Below, in pieces: positions 9,258 through 60,382 of a stretch of DNA of 64,000 nt. Positions within the stretch are counted from its first letter, which is position 1; each line of letters opens with the position of its first letter. The translations under genes and the position numbers were made by a program. The notes beneath the pieces are model-generated. The model searched no databases and was not told the origin of the DNA. It saw only the letters and a list, made by a program, of their open reading frames with translations. Source of the DNA: Candidatus Cloacimonadales bacterium (GTDB lineage Bacteria > Cloacimonadota > Cloacimonadia > Cloacimonadales > DAONDQ01); the NCBI GenBank assembly GCA_963662275.1, contig OY759316.1, positions 1,248,001 to 1,312,000 of the forward strand. Direction: 5' to 3'.

Positions 9258-9328
9258 CCAGCTCCTAACCAGCACCTAACCAGCTCCTAAAGTATTTAGT
9301 TTTTGACTAGCTTCTGATTAGCTTGTAA
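9258..9328. repeat. 11-bp periodic array
   Basis: CCAGCTCCTAA CCAGCACCTAA CCAGCTCCTAA followed by degenerate YTAG-initiated 11-mers. Confidence 0.6.
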
Positions 9329-9372
9329 TTATTCTCATTTATGCTGCTCATATGAGGGCGGTTTATGGGGAT

Positions 9373-15682: not shown

Positions 15683-15744
15683 CCTGACTCCTGGTGAGTT
15701 TTATTTCAATATTCGATTTGATAATGAATATGTCAATGAATAAG

Positions 15745-15786
15745 GTGACAGGGTACAGGGTATAGGGTACAGGGGACAGGGTACAG
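15745..15786 (+). repeat. Heptamer array (6 units, GGTACAG type)
   Basis: GTGACAG GGTACAG GGTATAG GGTACAG GGGACAG GGTACAG. Confidence 0.85.
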
Positions 15787-15917
15787 GTGTTTTCGTGTGA
15801 GAAATAGTATAGAGTTGCATCGCGATTAATTATCTGGAATGGGGTGGAATAAATATTGACAATGAGTATAGGAAATACAATATATAATTATATGCAATAT
15901 GAAACAGGTGGTATCTT

Positions 15918-17192
15918 ATGGCTCATCATTCAGCTAAATCAGAATATTATCAATTACAGGAACGGTTGAACCGTTTTCCCCAGGGAGCGCCTCCTTCAGA
16001 TACATTATATAAGATTTTACAAATACTTTTCAGCAAAAAGGAAGCAGAACTCGTTTCCCAACTTCCCATTAAGCCTTTTACTGCAATAGATGCTTCTAAA
16101 ATATGGAAGATACCAGTACCTGATTCCCGGAAAGTGCTTAAAGAACTGGCATCACGAGCTATTCTTGTAGATGCAGATTTTAACGGAATCATTTACTATA
16201 CCTTACCTCCACCAATGGCAGGTTTTTTTGAATTCTCCTTGATGCGTGTCCGTGGTGATATCGATCAGAAACTACTTGGAGAGCTTTATTACCAGTATCT
16301 AAATGTGGAAGAAGATTTTATCCGTGATTTGCTCTTGGGCAGTGAAACACGATTAGGTAGAGTCTTTGTTCAGGAAGAAGTACTGAGTAACGACAATGCG
16401 ATACATATCCTTGACTTTGAACGAGCCAGTAATGTGATTCAGACTGCCACTAAAATTGGTATCGGGATGTGTTATTGCCGTCATAAGATGCAGCATGTCG
16501 GCAAAGCATGTGATGCTCCCATGGATATCTGCATGACATTCAATGGAGCCGGTACATCTTTAATCAAAGCTGGATTTGCCAGGCAGGTTGATGTCTCTGA
16601 GGGAATGGAATTGCTGCACCAGGCGTATGAACATAACCTTGTGCAATGTGGTGAAAACGTGCGTCAGGGAGTCAATTTTATCTGCAATTGCTGTAGCTGC
16701 TGTTGTGAATTTCTTGTGAATGCAAAGAAATTTGGTTCGCTGCAGCCCATTCATACATCCAATTTTATTACACAAGCTGATACTTCTGCATGTATCGGGT
16801 GCGGTAAATGCATCAAAGCTTGCCCGATAGAGGCAATTTCCTACCTGAATCCAACCCCGGGGAATAAAGAAAAACCTAAAGTGCAGATTGACAGAGAGAT
16901 TTGTCTTGGCTGCGGAGTCTGCGTTAGAAGCTGTCCTACAAAGGCACTGTCTTTGGAAAGCCGTCCCGAGAGAATCATCACACCTATCAATTCTGTTCAT
17001 CGGGTTGTCCTGATGGCGATAGAAAAAGGTACGTTTCAAAACCTGCTCTTTGATAACCAGGCATTTGCCAGTCACCGTGCTTTAGCAGCCATATTAGGTG
17101 TGATATTGAAGCTTCCACCTGTAAAACAGATAATGGCGAGTAAGCAGATGAAGTCGGTGTATTTGGAGAAGCTGTGCGCGGGGAGAGGGTAA
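15918..17192 (+). CDS. 4Fe-4S dicluster-binding protein
   Basis: CIGCGKCIKACP, CLGCGVCVRSCP, ICNCCSCCC, CYCRH. Confidence 0.88.
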   Translation: MAHHSAKSEYYQLQERLNRFPQGAPPSDTLYKILQILFSKKEAELVSQLPIKPFTAIDASKIWKIPVPDSRKVLKELASRAILVDADFNGIIYYTLPPPMAGFFEFSLMRVRGDIDQKLLGELYYQYLNVEEDFIRDLLLGSETRLGRVFVQEEVLSNDNAIHILDFERASNVIQTATKIGIGMCYCRHKMQHVGKACDAPMDICMTFNGAGTSLIKAGFARQVDVSEGMELLHQAYEHNLVQCGENVRQGVNFICNCCSCCCEFLVNAKKFGSLQPIHTSNFITQADTSACIGCGKCIKACPIEAISYLNPTPGNKEKPKVQIDREICLGCGVCVRSCPTKALSLESRPERIITPINSVHRVVLMAIEKGTFQNLLFDNQAFASHRALAAILGVILKLPPVKQIMASKQMKSVYLEKLCAGRG

Positions 17193-17194
17193 AG

Positions 17195-17243
17195 GGGACA
17201 GCGTACAGGGTACAGCGGACAGGGTATAGGGTACAGGGGATAG
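17195..17243 (+). repeat. Heptamer array upstream of four-helix-bundle gene 1 (7 units)
   Basis: GGGACAG CGTACAG GGTACAG CGGACAG GGTATAG GGTACAG GGGATAG; reverse complement of the downstream array. Confidence 0.9.
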
Positions 17244-17358
17244 GGGGGGAAAGGGAAATATAGGGGATACAGTTTTTAATTAAGAAAATAATATTTGACA
17301 TATTCTCAATAAATACAGTTCTTAGTGATAACTTTATTCTTAGGGTTTAGGAGGATTT

Positions 17359-17721
17359 ATGCCGGTGCAAAGCTATAAGGAGTTGATCGTTTGGCAAAAA
17401 GCAATGGATTTGGTAGTAGAAGTGTATAAGCTTAGCAGAAGCTTTCCGAAAGATGAGTTATACTCTCTTACTAACCAAATACGAAGAGCTGTTACATCAG
17501 TTCCATCAAATATTGCAGAAGGTTGGGGAAGAAATTCCAGAGCTGAATATCTTCATTTCATATCTATTGCAAAAGGGTCATTGGCTGAAGTTGAAACGCA
17601 ATTACTTGTTGCATTAAGATTGCAATTCATTGACGAACAGCAAATTAATGCTTCATTAAATCTTCGTGAAGAGGTTGGCAAGATGCTATTTGCCTTATAC
17701 GCGAAACTCTCTTCTTCTTAA
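17359..17721 (+). CDS. Four helix bundle protein (23S rRNA-IVP / Avd-like family)
   Basis: LIVWQKAMDL..YKLS..FPKDE.Y.LTNQIRRA..SVPSNIAEG.GR...GSLAE.ETQ; AGGAGG RBS. Confidence 0.93.
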   Translation: MPVQSYKELIVWQKAMDLVVEVYKLSRSFPKDELYSLTNQIRRAVTSVPSNIAEGWGRNSRAEYLHFISIAKGSLAEVETQLLVALRLQFIDEQQINASLNLREEVGKMLFALYAKLSSS

Positions 17722-18096
17722 CCCTGTACCCTGTACCCTGTACGCTGTACCCTATACCCTGTACGCTGTACCCTGTACCCTGTACGCTGTACCCTGTACG
17801 CTGTACGCTGTACCCTGTACCCTGTACCCTGTACCCTGTACGCTGTACGCTGTACCCTGTACCCTGTACGCTGTACCCTGTACGCTGTACGCTGTACCCT
17901 GTACCCTGTACCCTGTACCCTGTACGCTGTACCCTGTACCCTGTACCCTGTACGCTGTACGCTGTACCCTGTACGCTGTACGCTGTACGCTGTACGCTGT
18001 ACGCTGTACGCTGTACGCTGTACCCTGTACGCTGTACCCTGTACCCTGTACCCTGTACCCTGTACCCTGTACGCTGTACCCTGTACGCTGTACGCT
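17722..18096 (+). repeat. Tandem 7-bp array, 53 units of CCCTGTA/CGCTGTA
   Basis: Begins at the first base after the stop codon; irregular mix of two variants plus one CCCTATA. Confidence 0.98.
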
Positions 18097-18113
18097 ACTT
18101 CAACGAGGTGAAT

Positions 18114-19064
18114 ATGATAATACCGATTATTTTGTTAATTCTTGGATTTGCACTGTTACTTTTAGGAGCTGATTGGTTAGTCAGAGGTGGTAGTTCCTTA
18201 GCTAAACGGTTTAATGTACCTGAAATTGTCATTGGCTTGACTGTGGTAGCATTCGGTACATCAATGCCTGAACTCATGGTCAATCTGATGTCCAGGCTAA
18301 AAGGCGTCACAGATATTACTTTTGGTGATGCCATCGGTAGTAATAATTTTAATATTCTCATTATCTTAGGGATAACCGCCCTTTTGTGTCCTCTTGTCGT
18401 AAAAAAAGCCACAATTTGGAAGGAAATTCCGTTTGCTCTCTTTGTCGCTCTATTAGTCATGTTCCTGGCAAATGACCAGTGGCTGAATCCCAGAGCTATT
18501 GATATGCTCAGCAGATGGGATGGAATTATCATGTTGGCTTTCTTTGGTCTCTTTCTTATTTATACAGTGCACTTGAGCAAAACAGGAGCAATTGAAGCGT
18601 CTAATGTAAAGGTGTATTCCTTATTTCTTACCATTGGGTTTATCGTTACAGGTATAGTTGGATTGATTGCTGGTGGGAAGGTTGTTATTACCCAGGCTGT
18701 AATCATTGCCGAACAATTTGGTGTTAGTCAAAAAGTCATAGGACTTACGATCGTGGCTGCCGGAACTTCCTTACCTGAACTTGCAACATCAGTCGTCGCT
18801 GCCTTAAAAAAACACCCTGATATTGCCATCGGCAATATCGTCGGTTCCAATATCTTTAATCTCTTATTCATTTTAGGTATCTCATCAACAATCAGTCCAC
18901 TTCCATACAAAATAGCGTTCAACCAGGATTTTACCTTAATGCTTGTTGCTACTACCTTATTGTTCGTCTATATGTTTATCCCAAAGAAACATCGCTTGGA
19001 TAGATGGCAAGGACTCTTGTTTATCCTCATCTATGTGGGATATTGCGTATATTTCCTGAAGTAG
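18114..19064 (+). CDS. Calcium/sodium antiporter (YrbG/CaCA family), copy 1
   Basis: GTSMPEL, GSNNFN, GTSLPEL and GNIVGSNIFN alpha repeats; start could also be GTG 18108. Confidence 0.93.
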   Translation: MIIPIILLILGFALLLLGADWLVRGGSSLAKRFNVPEIVIGLTVVAFGTSMPELMVNLMSRLKGVTDITFGDAIGSNNFNILIILGITALLCPLVVKKATIWKEIPFALFVALLVMFLANDQWLNPRAIDMLSRWDGIIMLAFFGLFLIYTVHLSKTGAIEASNVKVYSLFLTIGFIVTGIVGLIAGGKVVITQAVIIAEQFGVSQKVIGLTIVAAGTSLPELATSVVAALKKHPDIAIGNIVGSNIFNLLFILGISSTISPLPYKIAFNQDFTLMLVATTLLFVYMFIPKKHRLDRWQGLLFILIYVGYCVYFLK

Positions 19065-19075
19065 GCTGGGGGAAG

Positions 19076-19148
19076 GTGACAGCGTACAGCGGACAGGGAA
19101 TAGGAAGTAGTTAGGTGTTAGGTGTTAGGTGTTAGGTGTCAGGTTCAG
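19076..19148 (+). repeat. Mosaic heptamer array after stop codon
   Basis: GTGACAG CGTACAG CGGACAG GGAATAG gaag TAGTTAG (GTGTTAG)3 GTGTCAG. Confidence 0.88.
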
Positions 19149-19345
19149 AGCAGATGAGCATCATGTAACTATTAACAATCAGATTTCAATACGGCGATGA
19201 GATAAAAGAACACTCGAATCCCAAGATGCAAGGATGAAGATGGTATATTATCTTCTATCTGTTTCCACAGATCTGCATGTCTCATAAACCTACATTCCAT
19301 TTGACACAATTAATTTTTGAAGTATCTTGATACTATGAGGTGTTT

Positions 19346-20296
19346 ATGCTTATACCTATTATTTATCTGATACTTGGCTTTGTATTACTGATTTTAGGAG
19401 CTGATGGACTTGTAAGGGGAGCAAGTTCACTGGCGAAGAGAATCAATGTACCTGAAATTGCCATTGGTTTGACTGTGGTTGCTTTTGGGACATCAACCCC
19501 AGAATTGATCGTGAATATCTTTTCCAGTATCAAGGGTGCTTCAGATATCGCTTTTGGCAATATCATCGGCAGTAATAACTTTAATATCCTGATCATACTT
19601 GGGATTAGTGCTATGATTTGTCCGCTTGATGTTAAGAAAAGCACAATTTGGAAGGAAATTCCTTTTGCTCTATTCGTTGCAATTTTATGCTTGCTCCTGG
19701 TGAATAACAAATGGTTCAATCCCAATGCGATTGATTTGTTGAGCAGATTAGACGGCTTGCTCATGCTGGGATTCTTTGGTTTGTTTCTTCTTTATACATT
19801 GCACTTAAGCAAAACAGGAGCAATTACAGCATCAAATGTAAAGATTTATTCTCTTCTGCTCACAATTGGATTGATAGTAGCTGGCTTTGTCGGTTTGATT
19901 TTTGGAGGGGATTTGGTAGTCAAACAGGCAATCATCATTGCCAAACAATTCGGTATCAGTGAAAAAGTGATTGCTCTTACTATCGTCGCAGCCGGGACTT
20001 CCTTGCCGGAATTGGCAACATCAGCAGTGGCAGCTTTTAAGAAACACCCCGATATTGCCATCGGCAACATCGTCGGTTCCAATATCTTCAATCTATTGCT
20101 GATACTAGGTGTTTCCGCTTTGATTAACCCACCTTTGTATAAAACATCCTTCAACATAGATTTTTACTTGATGATTTTCTCTACTGCCCTGTTATTCGCT
20201 TATATGTTCATTGCTCGGAAACACCGTTTGGATAGATGGCAAGGCGTTTTATTCATCCTGATCTATGTTGTTTATGTGGTTTTTCTACTGAAGTAG
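19346..20296 (+). CDS. Calcium/sodium antiporter (YrbG/CaCA family), copy 2
   Basis: Colinear, same-length paralog of copy 1; start could also be GTG 19340. Confidence 0.93.
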   Translation: MLIPIIYLILGFVLLILGADGLVRGASSLAKRINVPEIAIGLTVVAFGTSTPELIVNIFSSIKGASDIAFGNIIGSNNFNILIILGISAMICPLDVKKSTIWKEIPFALFVAILCLLLVNNKWFNPNAIDLLSRLDGLLMLGFFGLFLLYTLHLSKTGAITASNVKIYSLLLTIGLIVAGFVGLIFGGDLVVKQAIIIAKQFGISEKVIALTIVAAGTSLPELATSAVAAFKKHPDIAIGNIVGSNIFNLLLILGVSALINPPLYKTSFNIDFYLMIFSTALLFAYMFIARKHRLDRWQGVLFILIYVVYVVFLLK

Positions 20297-20306
20297 GTTG
20301 CAGAAG

Positions 20307-20440
20307 GTAACAGCGTACAGCGTACAGCGTACAGGGAATAGGGATTAGGGAATAGGGAATAGGGAATAGGGATTAGGGAATAGGGATTAGGGAATAGGAA
20401 GTAGTTAGTAGTTAGTAGTTAGTGAGGTGTTAGGTGTTAG
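20307..20440 (+). repeat. Mosaic heptamer array after stop codon
   Basis: GTAACAG (CGTACAG)3 (GGAWTAG)9 gaag (TAGTTAG)3 tgag (GTGTTAG)2. Confidence 0.92.
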
Positions 20441-20456
20441 TGAGGAACGGGATTGA

Positions 20457-20650
20457 AATCCCCCCTTGAGAAGGGGGGTAGGGGGGTCTTTTTCTCTGAG
20501 CTGGGACTTGATACATGAAACCTGAAACCTGACCTTCCTTGAGTAGGAGGTGAGTTGTATGGAAATTCGTCCTCAATCCCCCCTTGAGAAGGGGGGTAGG
20601 GGGGTCTTTTTCTCCGAGCTAGTACCTGACACCTGAAACCTCACCCCTGT
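20457..20650 (+). repeat. Direct duplication of a C/G-rich hairpin repeat, each copy followed by C-rich heptamers
   Basis: AATCCCCCCTTGAGAAGGGGGGTAGGGGGGTCTTTTTCTCYGAGCT at ~20457 and ~20574, then CTGAAAC/CTGACAC units. Confidence 0.85.
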
Positions 20651-21566: not shown

Positions 21567-21804
21567 CAGGATAGGGGTTTGCGGTAGTAAACCCGTCTTC
21601 TTTTCTCTTCTGCTCTGAACTGTTCTCTGTACGCCTGTTGTCACAATTGGACTAAGATATTATGGACATCATGATAAGTTGTCTTATTAGATAAGGCATC
21701 GATAGTCAAATCTCCACATATTTACATTCTTCATTATATTCCAAAACTAATATCCCAAAACTAAAATAACATATGAACTTGCACTTCTTTGCCCTTAATT
21801 ACTA

Positions 21805-21910
21805 CCTGTTTCATACCAGTTTGATTCCTGTTTCATACCAGTTTCATTCCTGTTTCGCGAGACAGGAAAGAGATTGGATTGGGATTGGTATGGGATTGGA
21901 TATGGATTGG
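21805..21910. repeat. Inverted 11-bp periodic arrays
   Basis: (CCWGTTTSATW)4 CCTGTTTC-GC-GAGACAGG (NNNNGATTGG-type)4. Confidence 0.75.
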
Positions 21911-54920: not shown

Positions 54921-57016
<2,096 letters not shown>

Positions 57017-57037
57017 TACAGTCACGAAGTAACTTTT

Positions 57038-57071
57038 CCCCCCACTTTTGCAAAGAGGGGGATTAAGGGGG
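57038..57071 (+). repeat. C/G-rich hairpin repeat
   Basis: CCCCCCACTTTTGCAAAGAGGGGGATTAAGGGGG. Confidence 0.7.
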
Positions 57072-57141
57072 CGTTAGTTCTTCCTATAGTCTGAAATCGT
57101 CACTTTCATGTAAAGTTCATTCACAATAAAAAGGAGTCATC

Positions 57142-57621
57142 ATGAATAGAATCATACTGATATCAGTACTCATCATCGTGTGTAGTTTTGTATGGGCACA
57201 AGATTCTAAGTTTGGGGCAGGTATTATTTACTCAGACCCATCTGGAATTAATGCGAAATGCTGGTTAGATTCTAAATCAGCTCTTGATCTGTCACTTGCC
57301 TGGACTGAGGACAATCATATCCATAATACAGTGATTAGTGCTGATTACATTTGGCATACAAATTCTATCGATGATGGTAATGTGGCAAATCTTGTTGCAT
57401 ATTTAGGACTAGGTTTCCGGGCAGATTCTCATCCCGATGCGAATAATCAGAACAGTGATAATTCCTCTGTGAAACTGAGAACACCAATTGGATTTGATTT
57501 GCTATTCCATGACATTCCTATGGATTTATTCCTGGAATTTGTTCCCATGATGCAGTTTCAACCTGTCTCAGAAGCAGATTTCCGTATGGCTATTGGCATC
57601 AGGGTGTGGCCGTTCAGGTAG
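57142..57621 (+). CDS. Small putative outer-membrane beta-barrel protein
   Basis: Signal peptide; FGAGI...PSGINAK.W, DLFLEFVP, AIGIRVW. Confidence 0.7.
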   Translation: MNRIILISVLIIVCSFVWAQDSKFGAGIIYSDPSGINAKCWLDSKSALDLSLAWTEDNHIHNTVISADYIWHTNSIDDGNVANLVAYLGLGFRADSHPDANNQNSDNSSVKLRTPIGFDLLFHDIPMDLFLEFVPMMQFQPVSEADFRMAIGIRVWPFR

Positions 57622-57629
57622 GGCAGAAG

Positions 57630-57695
57630 GTGCTAGGGGTTAGGTGTTAGGTGTTAGGTGCTAGGTGCTAGGTGCTAGGGGTTAGGTGTTAGTGA
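57630..57695 (+). repeat. Heptamer array (9 units GTGYTAG/GGGTTAG) at the 3' side of four-helix-bundle gene 2
   Basis: Inverted relative to 58106-58439; inner end TTAGTGA. Confidence 0.93.
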
Positions 57696-57713
57696 CAAGT
57701 ATAATTATCAGTA

Positions 57714-58076
57714 TTAAATATTGTTAAGCTTGATTCGCAATGTTGCTAGCATCTTGCTAATTTCATTTTGTAGATCAATGGAAGTTTTTGCTTGTCTTTC
57801 TGTAATGTATTGAAGACGAATTGCTAAAATGATTTGCGTTTCTGTTTCTGCCAGCGAGCCTTGTGCTATAGAAATGAAATGCAGATATTCAGCTTTGGAA
57901 TTCCTACCTTTACCTTCTGCTATATTGGATGGAATTGATACTACTGCTCTGCGAATTTGATTTGTAAGACAATACAATTCGTCATTTGGAAAATTCTTGC
58001 TCAATTGATATATTTCAACAGTTAAGTCCATTGATTTCTGCCATACAATCAAATCTTGATAACTTTTTACAATCAT
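57714..58076 (-). CDS. Four helix bundle protein (23S rRNA-IVP / Avd-like family), copy 2
   Basis: 79/120 identical to 17359-17721 by manual count; AGGAGG RBS. Confidence 0.93.
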   Translation of the reverse strand: MIVKSYQDLIVWQKSMDLTVEIYQLSKNFPNDELYCLTNQIRRAVVSIPSNIAEGKGRNSKAEYLHFISIAQGSLAETETQIILAIRLQYITERQAKTSIDLQNEISKMLATLRIKLNNI

Positions 58077-58105
58077 CTTTCCCTCCTATTATTGTTTCCT
58101 AATCT

Positions 58106-58439
58106 TCACTAACCCCTAACACCTAGCACCTAGCACCTAGCACCTAGCACCTAGCACCTAGCACCTAGCACCTAGCACCTAGCACCTAACACCTAGCACC
58201 TAGCACCTAACACCTAGCACCTAGCACCTAACACCTAGCACCTAGCACCTAACACCTAGCACCTAGCACCTAGCACCTAACACCTAGCACCTAACACCTA
58301 GCACCTAGCACCTAACACCTAGCACCTAGCACCTAACACCTAGCACCTAACACCTAACACCTAACACCTAACACCTAACACCTAACACCTAGCACCTAAC
58401 ACCTAGCACCTAGCACCTAACACCTAGCACCTAACACCT
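58106..58439 (-). repeat. Tandem 7-bp array, 46 full units mostly CACCTAG/CACCTAA
   Basis: 58113-58434 = 46 x 7 bp; begins after add stop + CAGAAG on the minus strand. Confidence 0.98.
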
Positions 58440-58443
58440 TCTG

Positions 58444-59538
58444 CTATATAATCTCTTCCATCTTCAACTTAGAGTTAAATTCTTCCTCTTCCAATATTTC
58501 CATTTCTGCTAATGCTGCATCCAGGATGGCTACTCGTTCTTTGTAAGGAACGAAACCGCTCTTAAAGCCATTGATGATAATTCCTTTTATATCACGGTAG
58601 CTTAGACCCAATAATTCGATTGCCAGCATATACTCATCGGTTACAGTCGTATCGGAGACGGTACGATTATCAGTATTCAAAGTGACTCTTAAGCCATAAT
58701 CAAGATAGAAATCAACCGGATGCATCTGGATGGATTTCACTGCTTTTGTATGGAAATTACTTTTTAGACAGATTTCCATAGGAATACGATGATCATTCAC
58801 ATAATTCAGCAAGTCACCATCTTCAACCAGCCTGGTTCCATGTCCAAGACGATGTGTACCGCAATAATGAAGTGCCTGGTGGATACTGTCAGGTCCATAA
58901 GCTTCACCTGCATGGATAGTTATATTCAGGTTATTTTTCAGAGCGAGTTCAAAAGCATCACGATGTTCCTTCGCCGGATGATTATACTCAGCACCGGCAA
59001 GATCAAAACCAATGACACCACGATTCTTATAGGCAATTGCCAGTTCCGCAAGTTTCAGCGATGTAGCCGGATCCATGTTCCTGATACCGCATATAATGAC
59101 ACCTGTTTTTATATTGAAAACACGCTCTGCAGCTCGAAGACCTTCGATTACAGCATCTGAGATTTCTGTCAGTTTCATACCCTGGTTAGTATGCAGGATT
59201 GGAGAATAACGAACTTCCATATAGCGCACGTTTTCTTTCGCTGCATCTTCTGCCAGTTCATAGGCTGCACGATACAATCCTTCCCGGTTCTGCAGGACGA
59301 GATTCACGATATGGAAACCTTGAAGATATTCGTCCAAGCTTTCACAGGCTTCTGAACAACAGACGATCTTTGCCAATTTTTTGGGATCAGTTTCTGGAAG
59401 CTTGACATCGAATTTTTTAGCAAGGTCAATGATCGTGGCAATACGTACAGAACCATCCAGGTGAACATGCAGATCAACCTTAGGTAATTTTTCTATAAAT
59501 TCTCTTCTTAGTTTCATTTTTCCATCAATTTTTGTCAT
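58444..59538 (-). CDS. add: Adenosine deaminase
   Basis: LPKVDLHVHLDGS, GFDLAGAE, TIHAGE, RLGHG, NTDN. Confidence 0.95.
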   Translation of the reverse strand: MTKIDGKMKLRREFIEKLPKVDLHVHLDGSVRIATIIDLAKKFDVKLPETDPKKLAKIVCCSEACESLDEYLQGFHIVNLVLQNREGLYRAAYELAEDAAKENVRYMEVRYSPILHTNQGMKLTEISDAVIEGLRAAERVFNIKTGVIICGIRNMDPATSLKLAELAIAYKNRGVIGFDLAGAEYNHPAKEHRDAFELALKNNLNITIHAGEAYGPDSIHQALHYCGTHRLGHGTRLVEDGDLLNYVNDHRIPMEICLKSNFHTKAVKSIQMHPVDFYLDYGLRVTLNTDNRTVSDTTVTDEYMLAIELLGLSYRDIKGIIINGFKSGFVPYKERVAILDAALAEMEILEEEEFNSKLKMEEII

Positions 59539-60098
59539 TTTTCACTCCATTTATTCATAAAGAATATGTTTTCTTTGGGTTTGCGTTTCCTGCTTCCGGC
59601 AAAAGAACTCACTGCCTTGGCATATAGTGTCTTCTTATCTTTAGGGTAACCGAAAGGACAGATTGCGATTACACGAATAGAATCAGGTATGTCAAGAAAA
59701 GCTTTTATGCTTGTTTCAGAAAATGCTCCCAGCCAACAGGAACCAACCCCGAAATTCCAGGAGGTAAGAACCATCTGCTGCAAGGCTATAGCTGTATCCA
59801 CTAGATAATAGGATTGTCCATTTAAGACCAAATCCTCCTTGGGTTCAGCACAGGCGATTACTACAAAGGCTGCATCCTTCATGAAGCTGTTCACTAAACC
59901 GATGAATCCGCAATGCAGCGGTAATTTCTGTATCAAAGCCCGATCTGTGATCACAAGAAAACGCCAGGGCTGCCGATTCTGGGTGGAAGGTGCCCACCTG
60001 CCTGCTTCCAATATCTGATCGATAATCTCCTGGGGTACAGGTTCAGTCGTAAAACTACGTACACTCTGACGAGAAAGAACGACATCCATAAATTCCAT
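59535..60098 (-). CDS. Nitroreductase family protein
   Basis: RQSVRSF, APSTQNRQPWRF, GSCWLG, FGYP. Confidence 0.92.
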   Translation of the reverse strand: MEFMDVVLSRQSVRSFTTEPVPQEIIDQILEAGRWAPSTQNRQPWRFLVITDRALIQKLPLHCGFIGLVNSFMKDAAFVVIACAEPKEDLVLNGQSYYLVDTAIALQQMVLTSWNFGVGSCWLGAFSETSIKAFLDIPDSIRVIAICPFGYPKDKKTLYAKAVSSFAGSRKRKPKENIFFMNKWSEK

Positions 60099-60313: not shown

Positions 60314-60382
60314 CATTACGGTAGCATTACGGTTTTTTACCGTAATGCTACCGTAATGCTACCGTATTGCTACCGTAATGCT
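60314..60382. repeat. Inverted 11-bp arrays
   Basis: CATTACGGTAG-type unit x2 facing CTACCGTAATG-type unit x4. Confidence 0.88.

Follow-up and report, generated by a model that had tools for sequence, protein, structure and literature searches.

Intervening sequences (IVS) that interrupt 23S rRNA genes and carry an open reading frame (ORF) are the closest described systems to the element considered here. According to the excerpts of Warrier et al. 2016 (PMC4990558; all papers cited below are likewise drawn on in excerpt), the IVS of Coxiella burnetii lies in helix 45 and has a 28-bp terminal stem. AGAAGA and then 2–3 tandem GACAGAT heptamers stand upstream of its S23p ORF, the repeat count differing from strain to strain. 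The IVS is seen as selfish and possibly mobile; in vitro it is excised by RNase III, which makes the 5′ cut where the first repeat begins. The subject of this article is locus 2 (57622–58446) in a window of 64,000 nt from a Candidatus Cloacimonadales bacterium, corresponding to positions 1248001–1312000 of contig OY759316.1, one 4.38-Mb contig without N. At this locus, a gene for a PF05635 protein stands between two inverted heptanucleotide arrays, and we are highly confident that it is an IVS-type hairpin cassette outside rRNA.

Like the ORF-bearing IVS of Coxiella (and also of Leptospira), locus 2 holds a PF05635/S23p ORF that is looped by terminal inverted repeats. In both the Coxiella element and locus 2, an AG-rich leader and tandem heptamers precede the ORF (AGAAGA there, CAGAAG and 47 heptamers here); the stem has been shown to be an RNase III substrate in Coxiella, and we infer the same for locus 2. 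Unlike a 23S IVS, locus 2 does not lie in rRNA, but between an adenosine deaminase gene and an unrelated, convergent 159-aa ORF. Its arms are whole arrays of 63 and 329 nt, in contrast to the short stem and few repeats of the Coxiella element; its ORF is intact and has a strong Shine–Dalgarno sequence; and its unit families recur about 70 times elsewhere in the genome, mainly as solo arrays.

Tandem Repeats Finder (TRF), which placed period-7 arrays at 57628–57692 and 58115–58439, and direct reading together show that the cassette fills the entire gap between two convergent genes. Its parts and immediate neighbours are as follows.

57619–57621, forward strand: TAG stop of the left neighbour, the 159-aa gene, which has no family match; the cassette begins 2 nt (GG) further on
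57624–57629, forward strand: outer leader of the short arm, CAGAAG, which pairs with the long-arm leader in the predicted RNA fold
57630–57692, forward strand: short arm, 9 in-register GTGYTAG/GGGTTAG units, then TGA
57714–58076, reverse strand: gene for a 120-aa PF05635/TIGR02436 four-helix-bundle protein (23S rRNA IVS protein family), identified by profile searches
58077–58108, reverse strand: 32-nt leader between the ATG and the long arm, with the Shine–Dalgarno sequence AGGAGGG at 58081–58087, 6 nt 5′ of the ATG
58109–58437, reverse strand: long arm of 47 units, all perfect and in register; relative to the gene's sense it is the 5′ arm, rich in G; TGA comes next
58438–58443, reverse strand: outer leader of the long arm, CAGAAG, directly abutting the adenosine deaminase stop
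58444–59538, reverse strand: adenosine deaminase gene (PF00962, E 2.6e-96), the upstream host gene, on the same strand as the cassette gene; its TAG stop is 58444–58446

The short arm comprises 4 GTGCTAG, 3 GTGTTAG and 2 GGGTTAG units; it is G-rich on the forward strand and hence the C-rich 3′ arm relative to the sense of the enclosed gene. The long arm is made up of 28 GTGCTAG, 18 GTGTTAG and 1 GGGTTAG units, with no other variant across its whole length. The rare GGGTTAG is the innermost unit of the right arm, and units 2 and 8 of the 9 in the left arm; the inner end of both arms reads TTAG-TGA. An earlier note on this DNA had drawn attention to the GTGYTAG unit, CAGAAG after the TAG of the neighbouring gene, the TTAG-TGA ends and the rare GGGTTAG, all of which are correct on direct reading. 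The same holds for the paralogue that it had placed some 40 kb away (ORF 17359–17721; 79 residues identical over 119 aa, 66.4%) and for the polarity shared by the two loci, G-rich 5′ and C-rich 3′ of the gene.

PF05635 is a large family with solved structures, for which we know of no function. The locus 2 protein is matched by the models PF05635 (E 3.2e-42, 143.5 bits vs a cut-off of 33.8), TIGR02436 (E 4.5e-39, 133 bits vs 24) and NF008911 (146.3 bits vs 137). The conserved motif GxxRxxxSxxxNxxE, quoted for PF05635/TIGR02436 in PMC3936711, is present as QIRRAVVSIPSNIAE, with R, S, N and E in register and Q instead of G in the first position. The nearest solved relatives by sequence are 2gsc (XCC0516; E 1.8e-23) and 2rld (E 6.6e-11), both with five chains; XCC0516 is described as a homopentameric toroid (PMC4990558). 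Defence-system models (PADLOC) gave no match for the 120-aa protein, and a protein atlas search with it returned PF05635 clusters alone.

The 851-nt sense RNA of the cassette has a predicted folding energy of −286.2 kcal/mol (z −5.44), which none of 20 shuffled sequences equalled. In this fold, the whole short arm is base-paired, its partners being the leader and outermost units of the long arm. No terminators were predicted in 56900–59700, and no convincing promoter was found in the 58077–58108 leader or elsewhere inside the cassette. Because the leader has no convincing promoter, the cassette gene would be transcribed by read-through from adenosine deaminase. In the resulting RNA, the leader–short-arm pairing would give a duplex of about 70 bp. 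The genome has one RNase III gene; by analogy with the Coxiella 23S IVS, its product probably processes the cassette. It would cut the duplex, as it does in Coxiella at the first heptamer on the 5′ side, and so release the cassette RNA from the host message, which would allow the insertion to be tolerated. Selection for pairing, intramolecular template switching or both may preserve the identity of the arms, slippage would let their copy number drift, and solo arrays of the cassette unit families elsewhere in the genome would be recent products of the same system. Taken as a whole, a hairpin cassette of IVS design between protein genes, processed by RNase III, is the best explanation for locus 2, and one that we favour by a little over even confidence.

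Comparison with a genome of the same genus (G001) bears on how the cassette came to its site. There, the nitroreductase gene, the adenosine deaminase gene (protein 93% identical), the 159-aa gene and the next gene occur in the same order. The gap orthologous to locus 2 is 228 nt long and has no PF05635 gene; it contains inverted AT-rich heptamers of AATTAAA type that flank a terminator-like hairpin (L082 2578–2805). The congener thus carries a gene-less element with the layout of the cassette but another unit, and the locus 2 cassette is an insertion or replacement relative to it. Locus 2 has inverted ends, and the same-genus site is too diverged for its junctions to be defined.

Evidence that the two arms belong together comes from relatives. 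Eighty related loci were taken from genome contigs, whose record titles name Cloacimonadota, cyanobacteria, Clostridia, Selenomonadales, Planctomycetota, Verrucomicrobiota, Bacteroidota, Proteobacteria, candidate phyla and others; 5 with flanks below 200 nt were dropped, leaving 75. Heptamer arrays occur upstream of the gene in 53 of these, downstream in 49, and on both sides in 38. In 35 of the 38 two-sided loci, the upstream unit is the reverse complement of the downstream unit with at most one mismatch (22 exact, 13 with one mismatch; the other 3 have two). Permutation of the downstream arrays (2000 trials) gave a mean of 2.98 such matches and a maximum of 10; comparison of the units in direct orientation gave zero exact matches in the 38 loci. 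The covariance of left and right units, which the earlier note had proposed to examine by permutation, is therefore strongly positive. Its contention that the flanks are matched within a locus rather than independent also stands, and the same match is seen at all four intact genes of this genome; across genomes and within this one, the flanks are coupled, either by selection for pairing or by copying. Slippage also acts on the arms, beside this coupling, as is apparent from their unequal copy numbers (9 vs 47 at locus 2), runs and TCC-type higher-order patterns.

A second test, independent of repeat period, aligned each upstream flank locally with the reverse complement of the downstream flank. 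The sample consisted of the 80 loci, 25 loci from the same order and the 4 of this genome (109 in total), less 4 with flanks below 150 nt. Inverted arms above the 99th percentile of 627 mismatched pairs were found at 67 of the 105 loci. In 65 of these 67, the 5′ arm has more G than C; 55 of the 5′ arms are purine-rich, 10 pyrimidine-rich and 2 balanced. For the same order, 15 of 26 loci exceed the threshold, in a set that excludes this genome's own two loci, rows with short flanks and one gene duplicated in overlapping loci.

How closely the unit follows the protein was assessed for pairs among 68 loci. Units match (at most one mismatch) in 54% of the 28 pairs with at least 80% protein identity, 21% of 104 pairs at 65–80%, 6% of 1350 pairs at 50–65% and 5% of 796 pairs below 50%. 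With a match in only 54% of the closest pairs, strict protein–unit specificity was rejected. Units are inherited with the gene, yet turn over much faster than the protein; AG, period and polarity are conserved in them, and nothing else.

The other copies in this genome conform to this picture of coupled flanks. A tblastn search found three close paralogues, and a family profile search found four intact PF05635 genes and two weak fragments. Each of the four intact genes has a single unit family in its flanks, with at least one inverted pair; there are three families in total. Apart from locus 2, the features are listed below.

17180–17246, forward strand: 5′ arm of locus 1, a degenerate G-rich array of SGTACAG type, continuing from the end of a 4Fe-4S protein gene
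17359–17721, forward strand: PF05635 gene of locus 1, 120 aa, found by profile and tblastn
17721–18093, forward strand: 3′ arm of locus 1, 53 units as read on the G-rich strand (28 GGTACAG, 24 CGTACAG, 1 GGTATAG)
4057896–4058258 of the genome: gene of locus 3, 85% identical to locus 2
about 4195603–4195968 of the genome: locus 4, a divergent PF05635 paralogue with an AAGATTT unit
4168649–4168810 of the genome: fragment 1 (E 1.7e-4), with one TGA
1842215–1842310 of the genome: fragment 2, a weak match (E 0.06)

The long arm lies downstream of the gene in locus 1 and upstream in locus 2; in locus 1, it stops 10–14 nt short of the start of a Na/Ca exchanger gene. At locus 3, 14 units of GTGYTAG type lie upstream, and downstream there are only about 3 complementary ones. 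At loci 1 and 3, the arms are inverted though the flanking genes share one orientation. Locus 4 (4195400–4196300) has three AAGATTT-type arrays. Two stand upstream of the gene, a purine-rich array and, about 150 nt downstream of that, a complementary one; the third, also complementary, comes after the gene, so that complementary arrays stand on both sides of it. The two upstream arrays enclose a promoter-like stretch, TTGACA...GATATT, and therefore alternative pairings are possible at this locus. Both possible remnants sit between GAAGTNC arrays and their complements, a fourth flank family.

In the G001 congener, the region 3′ of the orthologue of the locus 1 host gene has AATTAAG heptamers, a different small gene, and AGTAAGA/GTTAAGA repeats that run into N.

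Heptamer arrays are not confined to the cassettes. Tandem arrays in the genome were counted by period under a strict and a looser rule.

Period 5: 22 arrays by the strict rule, 152 by the looser rule
Period 6: 24 strict, 25 looser
Period 7: 293 strict, 291 looser
Period 8: 0 strict, 1 looser
Period 9: 1 strict, 2 looser
Period 10: 0 looser
Period 11: 51 looser

By the strict-rule counts of periods 5, 6, 8 and 9, the excess of period 7 is not due to chance. The heptamer arrays fall into 49 unit classes, and 179 of the 291 are clear of crude gene calls, with 86% of the genome called coding. A reverse-complement partner within 900 nt was found for 21 of the 142 arrays of at least 5 copies, vs 4 of 142 for the same probes placed 50 kb off. 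Since arrays of the same families are mostly solo, pairing is a property of the gene cassettes and not general to heptamer arrays.

In their G-rich orientation, 61 of 265 array clusters open with CAGAAG, usually as ttGCAGAAG, where about 3 are expected (p ~5e-57). The same hexamer is found at the 3′ boundary of 24 clusters, and CTTCTG at the boundaries of 1 and 3. This leader is common to all unit families of the genome. At loci elsewhere, the outer 5′ boundary carries GAAG in 23 of 58 cases (two controls: 7 and 5) and AGAAG in 11 of 58 (controls: 4 and 1); the leader is thus common in other genomes, but not universal. Of the 265 clusters, 99 have their G-rich 5′ boundary no more than 30 nt from a sense gene's stop codon (p 1e-14), compared with 18 at convergent gene ends and 13 and 7 at gene starts. 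Array length is related to the resident genes: GTGYTAG or SGTACAG, the unit families of resident genes, account for 20 of the 23 arrays of at least 15 copies, 12 of 20 with 8–15 copies and 52 of 248 with 4–8 copies (Fisher p 3e-10 for the longest vs the shortest class). Long arrays show no clean replichore bias with respect to replication strand.

Some arrays near locus 1 are mosaics. The second Na/Ca exchanger gene is followed, right after its TAG stop, by the array at 20297–20446, which has the leader TTGCAGAAG. Its units GTAACAG, CGTACAG (three), GGAATAG/GGATTAG (nine), GAAGTAG and TTAGTAG (two) share a single N5-AG register, which an additional G then displaces by one position; two GTGTTAG units and a final TGA, as in locus 2, complete the array. 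A mixed array at 19065–19150 (GTGACAG, CGTACAG, CGGACAG, GGAATAG, GAAGTAG and three GTGTTAG) lies directly behind the first exchanger gene's stop; both exchangers (18108–19064 and 19340–20296) are encoded by paralogues arranged in tandem. An ACAGGGT-type array at 15740–15787 is located in the divergent region between gltX (reverse strand) and the 4Fe-4S gene (forward strand); with no sense stop ahead of it, this array departs from the stop-codon rule. Higher-order repeats also occur: 1702569–1703140 consists of four tandem units of about 173 nt, each with a CAGAAG leader and a short GTGTTAG array, and comparable repeats are found at 3069748–3070100 (78-nt spacing) and 1928666–1928869 (57-nt spacing).

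The age of solo arrays can be gauged from the congener. Seven genes whose stop abuts a solo array were considered, and G001 orthologues were found for six. Five of the six have no downstream array, and one of these pairs aligns cleanly on either side of an insertion of about 250 nt that begins at the stop codon. With five of six sites empty, a conserved position of solo arrays in the congener was rejected; the array-free sites indicate that the solo arrays are recent gains. The sixth site carries a solo GTGYTAG array in this genome, and its counterpart in G001 is occupied by AATTAAG heptamers together with a PF05635 gene. A cassette and a solo array can therefore hold the same site in sister genomes.

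To our knowledge, no class of long simple repeat is more over-represented in many bacteria than heptanucleotide repeats, for which there is no accepted cause. Locus 2 and its genome tie PF05635 to such repeats by rules that can be counted: covarying inverted arms, units that follow the N5-AG grammar, a shared leader, array starts at stop codons, and the longest arrays in the families of resident genes. With these rules, the question can be tested directly, through mapping of RNase III cuts and through assays of protein–RNA binding. They also explain why PF05635 genes are found between operon genes or inside cas loci, and why short-read assemblies break there. Zhang and Ye report 18 23S_rRNA_IVP genes within cas loci (PMC3936711).

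Several observations weigh against a hairpin cassette processed by RNase III. The unequal arms of locus 2 leave about 38 units without a partner, and a role in hairpins leaves the predominantly solo arrays of the cassette unit families unexplained. At the thresholds used, the 38 remaining loci of the 105 have no significant inverted arms. No target-site duplication is visible at 57622/58443. For the Coxiella element, the authors doubt that the S23p protein is made (PMC4990558). Mismatches between arms show no excess of G·U-compatible types in the sense RNA (52, vs 62 of A·C type; p 0.40), so that selection at the RNA level is not visible in that test; the result weakens the case for selection at that level alone and is equally compatible with copying of DNA.

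In one alternative, the protein acts in trans as a reader of the repeats. Its pentamer would bind single-stranded (N4-NAG)n RNA or ssDNA, with one NAG per subunit; arrays that start at stop codons would be its targets (3′ trailers), the cassette arms would serve as an autoregulatory switch, alternating between binding of the protein and pairing with each other, and the cassette would be the autonomous form of a system that seeds and expands N5-AG arrays behind stops. A HutP-like reader of this kind is our leading idea for the role of the protein, but we consider it unlikely, both as a description of what the protein does and as an account of the cassette. What speaks for it is, in the first place, that AG is the only near-invariant feature of the units. 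On the purine-rich strand, 244 of this genome's 291 units include AG, where 300 rounds of letter shuffling gave 166.7 on average and 188 at most; when only the 258 units with at least one G or C are counted, the figure is again 244. Elsewhere, 66 of the 105 loci have a 5′ period-7 array, and AG is present in 59 of these 66 units across phyla (shuffled mean 38.9, maximum 50 of 300), while AT is depleted in them (13 vs 32.7 shuffled). NAG triplets are AAG 109, TAG 75, CAG 62 and GAG 2 in this genome, and TAG 28, CAG 20, AAG 14 and GAG 7 across phyla. The mosaic arrays hold one N5-AG register over five unit families, the preference for sense over convergent gene ends and the dominance of resident-gene families among the longest arrays are as expected for such a protein, and the near-uniform polarity of the 5′ arm suits a strand-specific ligand.

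There is also a precedent for this kind of recognition. HutP binds XAG triplets (three, with a 4-nt spacer) and reads only A and G; as a hexameric ring on the 5′ repeats of the hut terminator RNA, it blocks hairpin formation (Gopinath et al. 2008, PMC2425495). The analogy is functional only: NAG recurs at 7-nt spacing in both, but the fold is unrelated to PF05635, and HutP uses 3+3 triplets where the arrays here offer tens. A HutP homologue was searched for in the genome, and none was found.

Against a reader protein stands the distribution of arrays among relatives, surveyed in 200-kb samples from nine genomes, all kin and a small sample.

This genome: 4 PF05635 genes, 18 period-7 arrays per 200 kb
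G003: 5 genes, 5 arrays, with 5 more of period 8 and 2 of period 9
G020: 2 genes, 2 arrays
G026: 3 genes, 2 arrays
G016: 7 genes, 1 array
G012: 6 genes, 1 array
G027: 1 gene, 0 arrays
G014: no gene, 1 array
G021: no gene, 0 arrays

Five of the seven gene-bearing relatives are at background (0–2 arrays, vs 0–1 in those without the gene); only this genome and G003 are enriched among the nine, and the idea that presence of the gene predicts arrays was rejected. Where orphan arrays are present, they match resident cassettes in period and unit; among those of G003 is GGTTGAGAG, which also serves as the unit in one cassette of that genome. The empty congener sites show recent gains and not conserved regulatory sites. 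Units differ between proteins that are more than 88% identical, which would limit recognition to AG and spacing. Arms of period 8 (GAGGTCGA) or 9 (GGTTGAGAG) occur at some same-order loci. If the reader model were true, the heptanucleotide excess (cyanobacterial short tandemly repeated repetitive (STRR) sequences, Xanthomonas, Beggiatoaceae) would have one cause, and an orphan protein family, to which the rRNA IVS proteins belong, would gain a function.

A further alternative places the system at the level of DNA, and appears to us quite improbable. The inverted arrays would form DNA hairpins or cruciforms, or serve as recombination substrates, thereby mobilising the cassette and seeding solo arrays at 3′ ends; the CAGAAG leader would be an end of the element or its target, and the arms would evolve in concert by template switching during replication. 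The lack of G·U bias agrees with this, as do the differences between congeners in the presence of the cassette and of five out of six solo arrays, and the site that is occupied by a PF05635 cassette in G001 and by a solo array here. The over-represented CAGAAG at the 5′ boundary of clusters and the patchy distribution of PF05635 in the order (19 of 31 genomes, 0 to 9 copies) point in the same direction. However, the locus 2 cassette has no transposase-like ORF, and no transposase or recombinase is present in or beside the four cassettes examined. The missing target-site duplication counts against mobility here as well; PF05635 has no known catalytic motif; and the strict polarity relative to the gene, together with the preference for sense stops, is more naturally read at the level of the transcript.

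Repetitive extragenic palindromic (REP) sequences and bacterial interspersed mosaic elements (BIMEs) with REP-associated tyrosine transposases (RAYT), and also MITEs (miniature inverted-repeat transposable elements), resemble the arrays here as short palindromic intergenic elements that proliferate in a genome. Unlike these, the arms here are tandem arrays and not a single palindrome, and have neither an associated transposase family nor a target-site duplication.

Two remaining alternatives are both very improbable. A coincidence of microsatellites, that is, two convergent genes each with a 3′ trailer array of the commonest family and an unrelated small gene between them, would agree with the fact that each locus 2 arm follows the grammar of solo arrays (stop codon, CAGAAG, G-rich units in the sense of the neighbour), but is contradicted by the covariance and inverted-arm tests, by the inverted arms of loci 1 and 3 between co-oriented genes, by the one-family flanks of all four intact genes and both possible remnants, and by the small share of partnered arrays in general. 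That the assembler made the long arrays or their lengths is suggested by the frequent breaks of short-read relatives at these genes (three of the nine PF05635 matches in G001 touch contig ends), but the genome is a single contig, among 23 sequencing runs, contigs of 3 from two studies (one of them perhaps the source sample) contain 0.97 of the words sampled from 57142–58800, the arrays are shorter than typical long reads, and the architecture recurs at the 67 independent loci.

The preferred reading, an IVS-type hairpin cassette, can finally be set beside other families of proteins and repeats. Avd, the accessory protein of diversity-generating retroelements (DGR), belongs to the same four-helix-bundle superfamily as PF05635; the locus 2 protein matches both Avd models weakly and below their cut-offs (PF22296, 28.4 bits vs 40; NF033474, 37.3 vs 80). 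Hallmarks of a DGR are absent from locus 2, with no reverse transcriptase (RT) in the window and no pair of template and variable repeats. The genome has 18 RT matches, none of them in the window: 17 are multi-copy ORFs of 412–465 aa, whose size and copy number suggest group II introns, and one is a Cas6-RT-Cas1 fusion. Telomerase- or DGR-like synthesis of the arrays was rejected, since no dedicated RT is near any cassette. The fusion gene (893 aa, 3092718–3095399, reverse strand; Cas1 E 3.7e-59, RVT_1 E 3.4e-17, Cas6 E 1.3e-06) has leader-bearing heptamer arrays at a distance of about 1 to 1.5 kb.

Cyanobacterial STRR sequences are further intergenic heptanucleotide repeats. In the excerpts of Rehm et al. 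2015 (PMC4692102), 186 GGGAATC arrays are reported for Xanthomonas campestris, with 70 cases of close convergent pairs, and GGGGAYT arrays for Nostoc; MacGregor 2015 (PMC4679880) describes TAACTGA repeats in Beggiatoaceae. Like the arrays here, these are tandem 7-nt repeats, intergenic, numerous in each genome and variable in length between close relatives. The Xanthomonas and Nostoc units lack AG, although Xanthomonas encodes XCC0516. As far as the excerpts go, the published accounts of heptamers consider G-quadruplexes or translational roles and do not mention PF05635, a leader or a position at stop codons; the units here have no G-runs. In Haemophilus influenzae, a simple-sequence repeat in a 5′ untranslated region (UTR) has been tied to RNase III, in a 2025 paper that mentions a heptameric repeat (PMC12721329). 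A literature search (without supplements) found no paper on heptamer-armed PF05635 cassettes as a class, or on a general link between PF05635 and heptamers.

Other repeats occur in the same window. Period 11, the second over-represented period, is represented by tandem arrays at 9258–9331, 21803–21910 and 60338–60382. A palindrome with G/C runs (CCCCCCTTGAGAAGGGGGG, then TAGGGGGGTCTTTTTCTC) is present twice, at 20455–20500 and 20573–20618, and belongs to another, REP- or terminator-like family. At 291–510, a 114-nt tandem duplication (1.9 copies, 76% identity) lies apparently within coding sequence.

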